IMG/VR virus record: IMGVR_UViG_2537562092_000003
Reading direction: 5' to 3' (one strand)
DNA from: a virus
Taxonomy: Duplodnaviria; Heunggongvirae; Uroviricota; Caudoviricetes
Length of the DNA stretch: 28,548 nt
In this document: piece by piece, positions 4,957 to 8,174 of the stretch
Numbering within the stretch: position 1 is the stretch's first letter
Layout: each line of letters starts with the position of its first letter
Translations under genes and position numbers: made by a program
Notes under the pieces: generated by a model
Databases searched by the model: none
The model's input: only the letters and a program-made list of their open reading frames with translations
What the model was told of the DNA's origin: nothing

Positions 4957-5556
4957 TCAGAACTTATAACCGACACCCACGATGAAACCGTCAGTGCGCC
5001 AGTCACCACTGCCGGAGCCTTCATAAGCAATATCAATGGCCACGGATTCGGTCGGGTTAAACTGCACGCCAGCCCCCCACGCCAGAGACGTGTTGCTGTG
5101 GCGACCGTCATCACTTCCGGTCAGCACATCGTGCGTTTTCCCCTTGTTGTCAGTTACGCGGAGGTAATCCCCGGAAAAAGTCGAAACACGGCTGTAAGCC
5201 ATACCCGCCATCGCATACGCGCTGAACCATTCATTCACGCGCACAGACGGCCCCGCCATCACGCTGAACCAGCGGTTACGCACGGAATCTTTATGCCAGC
5301 GGGTATCGCTGTAACGGGTCAGCTGACGATTCTTGTATCCTGCATAACTGAATGACGTCACCAGCCCCAGCGTGTCCGTAAATTCATAACGGTATTTCAC
5401 GTTAATGCCCTTCAGGTCATCACTGCCTGGCATATCAGTATGGGTCTGAAGATACCCGGCGCTTAGTGTGGACTGATGCTCTGCTGCGCTCGCTGGCGTA
5501 CCAGCGGCAACCAGCCAGACTACTGCGGACAGAATAACAGCACATAATTTACGCAT
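4957..5556 (-). CDS. lom: Lom/Ail/PagC-family outer membrane protein
   Basis: Signal peptide followed by AEHQSTLSAGYL...NVKYRYEF and C-terminal GVGYKF, as in lambda Lom (recall). Intact here; K-12 lomR is IS-disrupted. Confidence 0.85.
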   Translation of the reverse strand: MRKLCAVILSAVVWLVAAGTPASAAEHQSTLSAGYLQTHTDMPGSDDLKGINVKYRYEFTDTLGLVTSFSYAGYKNRQLTRYSDTRWHKDSVRNRWFSVMAGPSVRVNEWFSAYAMAGMAYSRVSTFSGDYLRVTDNKGKTHDVLTGSDDGRHSNTSLAWGAGVQFNPTESVAIDIAYEGSGSGDWRTDGFIVGVGYKF

Positions 5557-5623
5557 AATTACCTCTCGCTTTTCTGCAATAAAAAAGGCACCATTTCTGG
5601 TGCCCGTATCTGGGTTATAAAAT

Positions 5624-6586
5624 TCAGCTAATCGTGATGCCTGTAGTGGCTTTCTTCATCACCACAACCAGCAAATCGCTGATACTTGCTGTGGGATACC
5701 AGCCATTTACCCACCATGCTGATACAGAAAACTCCAGTGTCATTACACCACTGCCTGCAGGCATATCAATAACACCCGTGTAAATCAGAGTATTATCCAG
5801 AGCCGTTCGGTTATAAATTTCAGCCCCGTTTTTCTTCACTATCAGGCGGCATGACGAATAAGTATCGCTATTCTCCCGCTCATGTCTGGCACCGCAGAAA
5901 GCCACCGCTGGAATAACAATTTGCCGGTCAAACGACTGATCGTCATAAACCCTGACGGTAATAGTCCCTGATGGCCACCGCTCCGGTGCACGGGAGTCCC
6001 GGGGGAAAGCTTTGCCCACTGTTTTAACGAGATCGCCTTCAATCTGGTTCGCGGACAGTTTTCCCAGAACCCGACAGTTCTCGTTAATCGTGACATTATT
6101 GAGCGTCCCGGAGTTCGCATTCACGTTACCGCTGATATCGGCATTTTTCGCCGTCAGCCGCCCGTCCGGTGTCAGGGAAAATACCGGAGGATTGCCGCCA
6201 CTGGTAATGGTGGGAGCCGTCAGATACTTCAGGAACACTTCGTTCATGAATATCTGGTTGCCCTGCGCCACAAACATCGGCGTTTCATTCCCGTTTGCCG
6301 GGTCAATAAACGCGATACGGTTAGCGGCAACCAGGAACTGGCTCAGTTTGCCTTCCTCCGTATCCTCCATACTAAGGCCAAGCCCCGCGACATAATGCCT
6401 GCCGTCTTCGGTCTGCTCAATTTTGACGCCCCACATGGCATTCCATTTATCGTTGGCGTCCTTCCACTCTTTCGAAAACTCCTCCAGTTTGCTGGCGTTA
6501 TCCTCCGTCAGCTCGACTTTTTCCAGCAGCTCCTTGCCGAGATGGGATTCGGTTAACGTAGGTTCCGGAATCCAGATACAGCTCGG
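5624..6586 (-). pseudogene. C-terminal fragment of host-specificity protein J (central tail fibre); N-terminal majority of the gene absent
   Basis: ORF 5624-6436 resembles the lambda gpJ C-terminus as recalled ([24 protein letters not shown]...). The same frame stays open upstream to a stop at 6587-6589, so this is an internal piece of a longer gene. Confidence 0.7.
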
Positions 6587-7274
6587 TCATTCCGCCGCTG
6601 TTTTTCTGCGTCTGTTTCTGCCCTAACTGGACAGCACCGATCGTCATAAACAATTCACCACAGCGACCGAGATTCGTGTACGTATTCACATCCTCGTTAA
6701 TGCGCCCCATGAATGAGAACGGTCGATCAACCGAACAGATAAAGCTGTTCATTGCCTTGCGTTTCACCCACGAAGCATGGCCGCCATTGTCACCAAGAAA
6801 ATCCCCGCCCTGCGACATAGCGATGGAAAGAACAGGTATTGATTCGTAGTACGCCAGCATTTCAGAAAGGATCGCATCCAGTTTCCTTATCGGAAAATAG
6901 GCCTGGTCATAGTTGCGATCCACCCGAAACTGGAACTCGTGATAATCATCATCGAGCTGAATGAAGTATTTACACCCGACCAGTTTTGCCAGGTCGAAAC
7001 AGGCATTACGGGCGTAAAAAATTGAGCGGCGGTCACCAAAATTATCGGCTTCGTCAAAACGACTGGCGATATCGGCTTTGGAAAATACCAGCACCTGTTC
7101 ACCAAATTCAGCCATGTACTGATGCCGTGTCTTATCTTCATCATCAACAACGATAAAAATTTTCCCGGTATAGCCAGCACGACGCAACGTCCGGTAAGTC
7201 AGAACTTTTTCCGGTCGCCCGTGAGTCAGAATAAAGGCGCAAAAATCATCACGCATATTCCTCCTCCCCGCCAT
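6498..7274 (-). CDS. Hypothetical protein with GT-A-like acidic motifs, apparently truncated; its 3' end reads out of frame into the J fragment
   Basis: Strand-acidic motifs IFIVVDDED and YFIQLDDDY resemble the DxD motif of nucleotide-sugar transferases (weak, by eye). The last 30 or so codons (6498-6586) overlap J-homologous DNA in another frame. Confidence 0.4.
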
Positions 7275-8037
7275 GCATGATCTCCACCATGCGCTGCGTC
7301 ATTCGGACAAATCCATTTTCAATAGCCTGCTGATAATCAATGATCACCAGCGCCGACTCCTCGAAAAGGCACTGAATTTCAGCGGGGGCATGAGCGTAAT
7401 AGTCCGCAATTCTGCTGAAATTAAACACCGTGTGACGTTCTGCCGCACACAGGAGGAATTTCTCAATATCAGGATCAAGGGACGCCGAACGTATCCGGCT
7501 GATCAGCTCCTGAGTTTTCGTATCGTCGTACAGTTCACTGATATCCGGTTTACCGCCCGACGGCTCATAAACAGGCGTATCAATTTTCGTCGTATACGGC
7601 TCCTCCTTATTTCCTGTACCGGGCAAAACATCCGTCAACAGTTCATCAATTTCTGTCGGGCCGAAGCCTGTCAGGGAGACATCAAAATCAGCATTGATTA
7701 GGACCGACAGCTCCATCCGCAACAGATCTTCATCCCAGCCAGCATTCATCGGTAGGCGATTATCTGCCAAGCGGTACGCCTTTTTCTGCTCATCCGTCAG
7801 GCCAGACAGAACAATGACCGGAACAGAATCCATTTTGAGCATTTCAGCCGCCATAACACGACCGTGACCCGCAATAATTTCGCCCTTTTCGTCAATCAGC
7901 ACCGGATTAGTCCAGCCGAATTGCTTAATACTTTCTACCAGTTGTGCCACCTGCTCAGTACTGTGCGTCCTGGCGTTGTGCGCATACGGTGACAATTCTT
8001 GTAATGGGCGATAGACTATCTTTAATTTCTCGCTCAT
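7249..8037 (-). CDS. ParB-like nuclease domain protein
   Basis: N-terminus ...PYAHNARTHS...GWTNPVLIDEKGEIIAGHGR is the ParB/sulfiredoxin-fold signature. Probably the intact form of the gene left as a remnant in K-12 Rac. Confidence 0.7.
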   Translation of the reverse strand: MSEKLKIVYRPLQELSPYAHNARTHSTEQVAQLVESIKQFGWTNPVLIDEKGEIIAGHGRVMAAEMLKMDSVPVIVLSGLTDEQKKAYRLADNRLPMNAGWDEDLLRMELSVLINADFDVSLTGFGPTEIDELLTDVLPGTGNKEEPYTTKIDTPVYEPSGGKPDISELYDDTKTQELISRIRSASLDPDIEKFLLCAAERHTVFNFSRIADYYAHAPAEIQCLFEESALVIIDYQQAIENGFVRMTQRMVEIMHGGEEEYA

Positions 8038-8174
8038 ACAGCCTTGCTTTATGAATAAAACGCACCCCAGCAGCCAGTGCTACTGGGGGCGGAGGTGTTG
8101 CTGGTAAAGTTAGGTATTGGATCAATGAGTGAGTCAATATAATATTAAACTCACAATTATAAATCAGCCATATA

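Follow-up and report, generated by a model that had tools for sequence, protein, structure and literature searches.

A ParB-like gene beside a truncated TAGT glycosyltransferase gene in the defective Escherichia coli Rac prophage: remnant of a putative ParB-assisted DNA-glycosylating cassette

Phage enzymes of the GT-A fold that are related to JGT, the base-J glucosyltransferase of trypanosomes, glycosylate 5-hydroxymethylcytosine (5hmC) in DNA (bioRxiv 10.1101/2023.12.21.572611), tandem glycosyltransferases (GTs) also build glycans on 5hmC in DNA, and the T6-type TAGT is thought to add a second glucose to glucosyl-hydroxymethylcytosine. About 65% of roughly 25,000 phage GT contigs had no nearby 5mYOX or ThyS and were set aside in the survey by New England Biolabs, which noted ParB-like proteins, terminases, clamps and epimerases among the GT neighbours (bioRxiv 10.1101/2023.12.21.572611). 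A ParB-like protein is required by a subclass of phage thymine dioxygenases, among them 5mYOX176, on double-stranded DNA (PNAS 2026, PMC13229309). This protein, ParB176, consists of a nucleotide-binding domain, a helix pair, a disordered linker and a C-terminal domain, with no DNA-binding domain. The same study attributes to Aravind's group the proposal that modification enzymes are guided by ParB while DNA is packaged (PMC13229309). A survey of the ParB-CTPase fold mentions neither glycosyltransferases nor terminases. Here we analyze IMG/VR record IMGVR_UViG_2537562092_000003, a stretch of 28,548 nucleotides (the window hereafter) that is the defective Rac prophage of Escherichia coli, and in which a complete gene for a ParB-like protein (full-length ynaK) overlaps a truncated gene for a TAGT-family GT (ydaY). 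The initial annotation of this DNA had described the coupling of ParB-like domains to sugar transferases as a computational proposal and the role of the pair as not established. The former agrees with the literature (PMC8256090, bioRxiv 10.1101/2023.12.21.572611, PMC13229309), and we found no functional paper on ynaK/ydaY beyond one over-expression screen.

The second gene of the pair encodes a recognizable member of the TAGT family. Its product scores 120.4 bits (E 1.3e-34) with Pfam TAGT (PF20691, TET-associated glycosyltransferase), for which the cut-off is 27.5, and the match spans positions 4-205 of the 205 in the profile. With PHROG 842 the E value is 4.7e-87 (positions 1-216 of 270). 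Both acidic motifs that had first drawn attention to this open reading frame (ORF), IFIVVDDED and YFIQLDDDY, are present, and the latter holds the invariant DDD102-104. TAGT members with only 25-49% identity also share the invariant residues R14, K167 and D189, and E188 is nearly invariant in close homologues; the truncated copy keeps R14, DDD102-104 and E188/D189. The resulting R...DDD...ED pattern is the one described for phage and trypanosome JGT-like DNA glycosyltransferases (bioRxiv 10.1101/2023.12.21.572611), and a GT-A fold is seen in the model of an intact TAGT homologue. Given the Pfam match over nearly the whole profile and this invariant pattern, the assignment to the TAGT family and the GT-A fold is strong, contrary to the weak fold assignment claimed at first. 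TAGT has no sequence relative in the PDB at E values up to 1, no NCBIfam model and no match in PADLOC. In its intact E. coli form the protein is 310 residues long, and RefSeq names it 'GREB1-related protein'.

In many phage genomes TAGT is labelled 'beta-glucosyl-HMC-alpha-glucosyltransferase' (HMC, hydroxymethylcytosine) and its partner 'chromosome partitioning protein'. The second label reflects the presence of a ParB domain, whereas the first is inherited from distant T-even members of PHROG 842 and is misleading here. Despite the PHROG 842 match, the protein does not qualify as a T-even beta-glucosyl-HMC alpha-glucosyltransferase, and RefSeq annotation and Pfam scans of the Rac prophage contain no dCMP hydroxymethylase or alpha-glucosyltransferase. 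The PHROG 842 label is probably incorrect for c5 and other small phages, which have no annotated hydroxymethylcytosine pathway.

Both ORFs lie on the minus strand as first annotated, at 7249-8037 (262 aa) and 6498-7274 (258 aa). The 26-nt overlap attributed to them holds for the longest ORF only. TAGT homologues and the RefSeq gene begin with the ATG at 7256 (MRDDF...), which follows GGAGGAGG; with this most likely start, the overlap is the 8 nt ATGCGTGA. The short overlap together with GGAGGAGG suggests that the two genes are translationally coupled.

The ParB-like ORF is complete and identical to its copy in an intact prophage, and the protein is conserved over its full length in 53 homologues. 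The ParB/sulfiredoxin fold proposed for it is borne out by Pfam ParB_N (PF02195; 29.3 bits, cut-off 26.3) and by the best Foldseek matches of an AlphaFold2 (AF2) model, which are Noc, CTP-bound ParB, KorB and PadC (E 4e-6 to 1e-4). PHROG 620 matches the protein end to end (E 3e-89), and the N-terminal 95 residues align with Spo0J/ParB/Noc sequences of the PDB. The predicted local distance difference test (pLDDT) score of the model is 69.6 overall, 72-92 for residues 1-90 and 60-86 for residues 91-135, which include a helix pair (residues 103-134); it drops below 50 in the linker (residues 136-158). Across 158 distinct sequences, the linker conserves Y148 (95%), T/S149 (92%), P155 (91%) and Y157 (94%). 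In both structure and sequence, the N-terminal domain is best matched by the canonical CTP clamps ParB, Noc and KorB, but the protein departs from them in being strongly acidic and in its box II, AGHGRVMAA as opposed to GERRxRAA, with G57, R60 and a box III-like ADN kept. Neither Pfam nor the AF2 model reveals a helix-turn-helix (HTH), the rest of the protein being the helix pair, the disordered linker and the C-terminal domain, and no ParA is annotated in the Rac prophage in RefSeq. With a deviating box II and no HTH, it is not a canonical CTP-dependent ParB, a comparison in which parS was not searched for.

The N-terminal module is also shared with DNA-modifying enzymes. Residues 3-141 match the module with which ParB-fused phage DNA methyltransferases begin (PHROG 498, E 3e-50), and residues 10-141 match PADLOC MTase_II, the N-terminus of a ParB-fused DNA methyltransferase (E 6e-38). 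These fusions are likewise prophage-borne and linked to DNA modification. In the present protein, by contrast, the module is fused to a C-terminal domain (CTD), and the enzyme is a separate, coupled gene, the two forming a single ORF only in locus L139.

This CTD is an all-helical domain of ~110 aa, with R201, Y214 and D234 invariant and H202, Q222, E226 and G242 near-invariant. Its only Pfam match is a sub-threshold one to Phage_Gene47 in 2 of 26 members, and its profile retrieves spurious coiled-coil matches alone from the PDB; we therefore treat it as an uncurated domain. Among 1.84 billion representatives, it occurs in 1,191 clusters, always in a C-terminal position. In most loci it forms the C-terminus of the ParB-like protein, and in about 15% of cassettes it stands alone (120-148 aa) without a ParB domain. 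In Vibrio phage pv27, the stand-alone CTD is a 139-aa ORF (L087, 6489-6908) that is unannotated or hypothetical, and some 23 IMG/VR loci of large phages have a stand-alone CTD followed by TAGT (for example L101 5607-6011 and L125 5607-6011).

A first scan for related loci returned almost entirely near-identical E. coli prophages and was replaced by scans headed with distant members, whose diverse loci were analysed by ad hoc hidden Markov models. The non-redundant set comprises 195 TAGT loci: 41 from E. coli-like prophages, 6 from annotated phages and 148 from diverse viral contigs. The CTD lies beside TAGT in all 190 loci with enough flanking sequence and immediately upstream in 177 of them. 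The remaining 13 mostly carry extra TAGT paralogs or another gene between CTD and TAGT; one has the CTD downstream, and one encodes ParB_N, CTD and TAGT as a single polypeptide of 522 aa (the L139 fusion, 5281-6849). Conversely, TAGT was present in each of 74 loci found via the CTD alone, and in species-representative genomes of many phyla the CTD accompanied TAGT in 78 of 78 assessable loci. Over a total of ~340 assessable loci from phages, metagenomes and genome contigs, every TAGT of this clade lies beside a CTD, which is an obligate, dedicated partner of the clade.

The initial annotation had named the lack of conserved linkage in other phages as a finding that would speak against a module. 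The linkage holds from E. coli to phages of Lactobacillus, Nocardia and Porphyromonas and to a halovirus. Overlapping pairs occur in Lactobacillus phages phi jlb1 and c5, in a Porphyromonas phage and in halovirus HHTV-2. The c5 pair consists of ORF1 and ORF2 and comes immediately after the cos site; that of Nocardia phage NTR1 (Orf1 and Orf2) immediately precedes the large terminase (TerL), and no small terminase (TerS) is annotated there. The genes overlap in every annotated phage examined, by 4-29 nt in five distant phages, and in these distant phages the partner is conserved along its whole length at 24-42% identity.

Behind the ParB_N form, a large terminase follows in all 83 loci with at least 2.5 kb of downstream sequence, and these terminases span four TerL families. 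A small Sf6-like HTH protein (TerS) lies between TAGT and TerL in 35 related loci, and the TerS of the intact E. coli locus is a Terminase_2 protein. A small terminase subunit, which the initial annotation had held out as an identity of the second ORF that would overturn its proposal, was rejected for both genes: neither matches a TerS family, and intact loci carry a separate TerS. CTD-only cassettes are found in replication modules of larger phages; of 23 such loci, 9 adjoin a DnaN-like clamp and 8 adjoin DNA polymerase A. A nucleoside diphosphate (NDP)-sugar epimerase/dehydratase follows directly after TAGT in nine loci, a cytidylyltransferase family appears twice among the neighbour set, and locus L217 (3794-9218) combines one CTD gene with five tandem TAGT paralogs and a cytidylyltransferase-like ORF. 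The median isoelectric point is 8.8 for TAGT and 4.7 for both partner domains. Further elaborated cassettes are found at L228 6861-7799, L158 936-1904 and L252 4995-5990; the extra genes within or beside such cassettes include an NDP-sugar epimerase/dehydratase, a radical-SAM-like ORF (CxxxCxxC) and a histidine phosphatase.

In the window the pair is no longer complete. Identity to the intact 310-aa TAGT stops after codon 234 (position 6555), and alignment with an intact Rac-like prophage (E. coli ST70, NZ_CP102244) shows that 19,281 bp are missing: the 3' end of TAGT, a 69-codon ORF, TerS, TerL, the portal, head and most tail genes, and the 5' two-thirds of the tail-tip gene J. The deletion fuses TAGT out of frame to the last third of J (J-derived codons 6501-6554, stop 6498-6500). 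TAGT has thus lost its last 76 residues. Among them are K235, P244, H260 and H261, invariant throughout the divergent family, as well as F237, Y238, R258 and W265, which do not vary between close relatives. Because this conserved C-terminal block is gone, the truncated copy is probably inactive, as the first description had supposed, and the ParB-like gene left an orphan; the Pfam TAGT domain itself (profile 4-205) is retained, which speaks against inactivity. The deletion is recent, given that the remaining DNA matches the intact copy at 99.96% identity. Among 5,426 complete E. coli genomes, TAGT DNA is found in 996, and at least 80% of the gene in 869 (about 16%).

Deletion end points in other E. 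coli strains gather at two hot spots, codons 230-236 of TAGT (6553-6573) and codons 162-168 of the ParB-like gene (7534-7554), each with at least 10 different fusion partners. The same tail-fibre or tfa partner peptides are found at both, and five DNA-level junctions lie within 10 bp of the present one (related loci L059 and L063-L066). A terminase cut site, invertase pseudo-sites or microhomology are possible causes. Pin-type invertase pseudo-sites were rejected: nothing fits them apart from a GTAAACC half-site at the ParB hot spot, and 3-nt microhomology is seen instead at both junctions with recoverable parents (the present one and L063).

Following from these data, the interpretation we lean towards, with confidence slightly better than even, is that the locus is a remnant copy, in the defective Rac prophage, of a ParB-assisted, packaging-linked two-component DNA glycosyltransferase. 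The intact cassette opens the DNA-packaging (late) gene block, and both proteins would be co-made late in infection. The ParB-like protein could bind TAGT through its CTD and thereby activate it or position it on double-stranded phage DNA, where TAGT would move a sugar from a nucleotide-sugar to DNA around packaging; the ParB domain is tied specifically to the packaging-linked form. The model is drawn by analogy with ParB-dependent phage thymine dioxygenases. As in the 5mYOX176-ParB176 system, an adjacent gene encodes a cognate ParB-like protein with the same domain layout, judged from the AF2 model and alignments. The enzyme here is a glycosyltransferase rather than a dioxygenase, and while ParB176 needs both of its domains, about 15% of the present cassettes use the CTD without a ParB domain. 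DNA is favoured as the substrate on account of the TAGT relatives, the kinship of the N-terminal module with that of DNA methyltransferases, the packaging or replication context and the 5mYOX precedent.

The kind of system to which the cassette would belong is known. With described TAGT/JGT DNA glycosyltransferases it shares the Pfam match, the GT-A fold, the R...DDD...ED pattern, its phage origin and, in some loci, tandem arrays and adjoining sugar-nucleotide enzymes. The clade differs from them by its obligate CTD, its linkage to terminase and the lack of a TET/5mYOX, ThyS or C5-methyltransferase source of hydroxymethyl bases, and the present copy differs further in lacking the conserved C-terminal block.

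Several observations weigh against this DNA-glycosylating interpretation. Neither the window nor the intact prophage nor phage c5, whose 31.8-kb genome is complete, has a TET/JBP, ThyS-like hydroxymethylase or C5-methyltransferase, and none is among the recurrent neighbours of 150 loci, for which the last scan listed the top 25 families. With no source of hydroxymethyl-pyrimidines, the only known acceptors of DNA glycosyltransferases are missing, which weakens the case for a DNA substrate. In canonical ParB, the box II glutamate is needed for CTP hydrolysis; with GHGR in place of GERR, this glutamate is replaced here. In addition, the partner is an acidic protein in which no DNA-binding domain can be recognised. 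The New England Biolabs survey rated GT contigs without 5mYOX/ThyS as less likely to be DNA-modifying (bioRxiv 10.1101/2023.12.21.572611), and GREB1, a TAGT-domain protein, glycosylates a protein (PMC7968844).

A more specific proposal accommodates the missing acceptor, and we put it forward only tentatively. The intact cassette might carry out a hydroxymethyl-pyrimidine-independent glycosylation coupled to packaging or replication, in which the ~110-aa CTD would serve as a previously undescribed, obligatory cofactor domain. The targets would then be unmodified DNA, DNA ends or a carrier protein, with the ParB domain added specifically in the terminase-linked form.

A less likely but serious alternative is that the cassette glycosylates a protein, either the Tyr/Thr motif in the partner's own linker, in a glycogenin- or GREB1-like manner, or a packaging or virion protein. 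Y148, [TS]149 and Y157 are 92-95% conserved within a predicted disordered linker, CTD and TAGT are paired strictly one-to-one, and cassettes with one CTD gene, two to five tandem TAGT paralogs and sugar-nucleotide enzymes fit a glycan built on a single carrier. The lack of a hydroxylated-base pathway points in the same direction, as does the O-GlcNAcylation of ER-alpha by the animal protein GREB1. The latter shares the Pfam domain with TAGT but is a 1,949-aa cytoplasmic protein that has no ParB partner. DNA remains the better supported substrate in that DNA methyltransferases occur as fusions with the N-terminal module of the partner, all cassettes are located in packaging or replication modules, TAGT is basic, and the characterised phage relatives, JGT, the T6-type enzyme and tandem GTs act on DNA. 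Ser/Thr160 was considered as a conserved acceptor and rejected, the position being K, T or S; this lack of conservation at residue 160 also counts against a protein target.

The absence of an evident phage-made acceptor base, together with the survey proposal that prophage fusions of the ParB-CTPase fold serve anti-defence, could likewise indicate that the enzyme serves counter-defence or is directed at the host, with a nucleotide signal, RNA, host DNA or the like as the target of glycosylation. We consider this improbable, since position and operon structure point to late, packaging-coupled expression, TAGT matches none of the PADLOC defence models, and direct support is lacking.

As for the remnant itself, a role in host benefit through the intact ParB-like gene or the truncated TAGT seems similarly doubtful. 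In its favour, the ParB-like ORF is complete and does not differ from that of intact prophages, the Pfam TAGT domain is retained, the region occurs in 3,500 of 5,426 complete E. coli genomes, and over-expression of the K-12 ynaK fragment raised the minimum inhibitory concentration (MIC) of six antibiotics in one screen (PMC12924614). The MIC data, however, concern over-expression only. Since the DNA is 99.9-100% identical to intact copies, the deletion is too young for selection to be visible. The pair also has a terminator-like hairpin immediately upstream, and in many other E. coli strains both genes are truncated in different ways.

A packaging accessory, resembling a small terminase or HNH helper that marks or recognises the pac/cos region, with a secondary or non-catalytic transferase fold, would fit the terminase that follows the ParB_N form in all 83 assessable loci, the placement of the pair after cos in c5 and before TerL, with no annotated TerS, in NTR1, and the deletion end points clustered in both genes, which could mark a cleavage site, yet this is very improbable given that the catalytic GT-A residues are invariant across the family, that most loci have a separate TerS, that CTD and TAGT also occur far from terminase in replication modules, and that sugar-nucleotide enzymes are linked to the cassette.

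The remaining features of this Rac prophage locus are listed in Table 1. The 1.9-kb region has 100% identical copies in at least 11 complete E. coli genomes, and the 3,500 genomes mentioned above contain parts of it. According to the RefSeq annotation of an identical stretch and Pfam scans, the plus-strand order begins with tail fibre, lom, J fragment, gene pair, trkG, Rz/R/S and two tRNAs and continues with a Q-like antiterminator, QueH, replication and immunity genes, sieB, recE, recT and the integrase. This gene order places the pair between the lysis genes, with the trkG moron, upstream and leftover structural genes downstream, in agreement with the lysis/structural junction recorded initially. 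The strong hairpin at the end of trkG has a 10-bp stem with 7 G-C pairs and a T-rich tail, and transcription of the pair should consequently be limited without antitermination. The genes for the epoxyqueuosine reductase QueH and a DUF1971 protein in the nin-like region, and the tRNA genes just upstream of the lysis cassette, are prophage cargo tied to tRNA or tRNA modification.

Table 1. Positions of the gene pair, its domains and adjoining features in the window
Feature	Position	Strand	Evidence or remark
Intact 262-codon ParB-like gene	7249..8037	-	ORF; ParB_N; PHROG 620
ParB/Srx N-terminal nucleotide-binding-type domain and helix pair, residues 1-135	7633..8037	-	
Acidic predicted-disordered linker, motif Y148-[TS]149-x-K151-x3-P155-x-Y157-E-P	7543..7632	-	
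All-helical CTD, residues 166-262 (AF2 helices 166-255)	7249..7542	-	
Truncated TAGT-family GT-A glycosyltransferase gene, codons 1-234 of 310	6555..7256	-	Pfam, PHROG, alignments
8-nt overlap ATGCGTGA, ParB stop / likely TAGT start	7249..7256	-	GGAGGAGG at 7260-7267
Deletion junction, 3-nt microhomology (TAA, minus strand)	6553..6555	.	
Out-of-frame read-through into J-derived DNA, 18 codons and stop	6498..6554	-	non-native
J (tail-tip) C-terminal fragment	5624..6556	-	RefSeq pseudogene; Pfam Phage_Tail_Tip, Ig_GpJ_C
Terminator-like hairpin after trkG	8065..8088	-	28 nt upstream of ParB start
trkG (K+ transporter) moron with its end hairpin	8065-9650	-	between Rz and ParB-like gene
tRNA-Gly(TCC) and tRNA-Thr(TGT)	11723-11876	-	
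DUF1971 gene	14522-14866	+	
Epoxyqueuosine reductase QueH gene	15478-16146	-	

The K-12 Rac prophage carries the same locus between trkG and the tail genes, and RefSeq uses the K-12 name ynaK for the present gene. In K-12, ynaK is shorter (about 87 codons) and accompanied by a shorter ydaY pseudogene, whereas the present locus has the full 262-codon ParB-like gene and 234 of the 310 TAGT codons. In the RefSeq annotation (PGAP), only the first 258 nt of the ParB-like ORF are annotated, as an incomplete 'ynaK' pseudogene. The gene is cut short in the same way at related loci L001 (9697-10485) and L002, even where the prophage is intact, and ~520 nt of its coding sequence go without annotation. 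This probably stems from a naming model derived from the truncated K-12 gene.

The copy in the window appears to be a dead remnant, of value only as a pointer to intact cassettes. By-products of its analysis are that RefSeq under-annotates an intact ParB-like gene and that the PHROG 842 label misleads when applied to these phages. Phage enzymes that are linked to ParB and modify DNA have newly come under test, with the first ParB-dependent dioxygenase reported in 2026. The cassette, which spans many bacterial phyla and a halovirus, offers a clean and very widespread example of the approximately two-thirds of GT-A/GT-B contigs that lack a known source of the acceptor base, and since intact copies exist in E. 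coli, the target of its glycosylation is directly testable.

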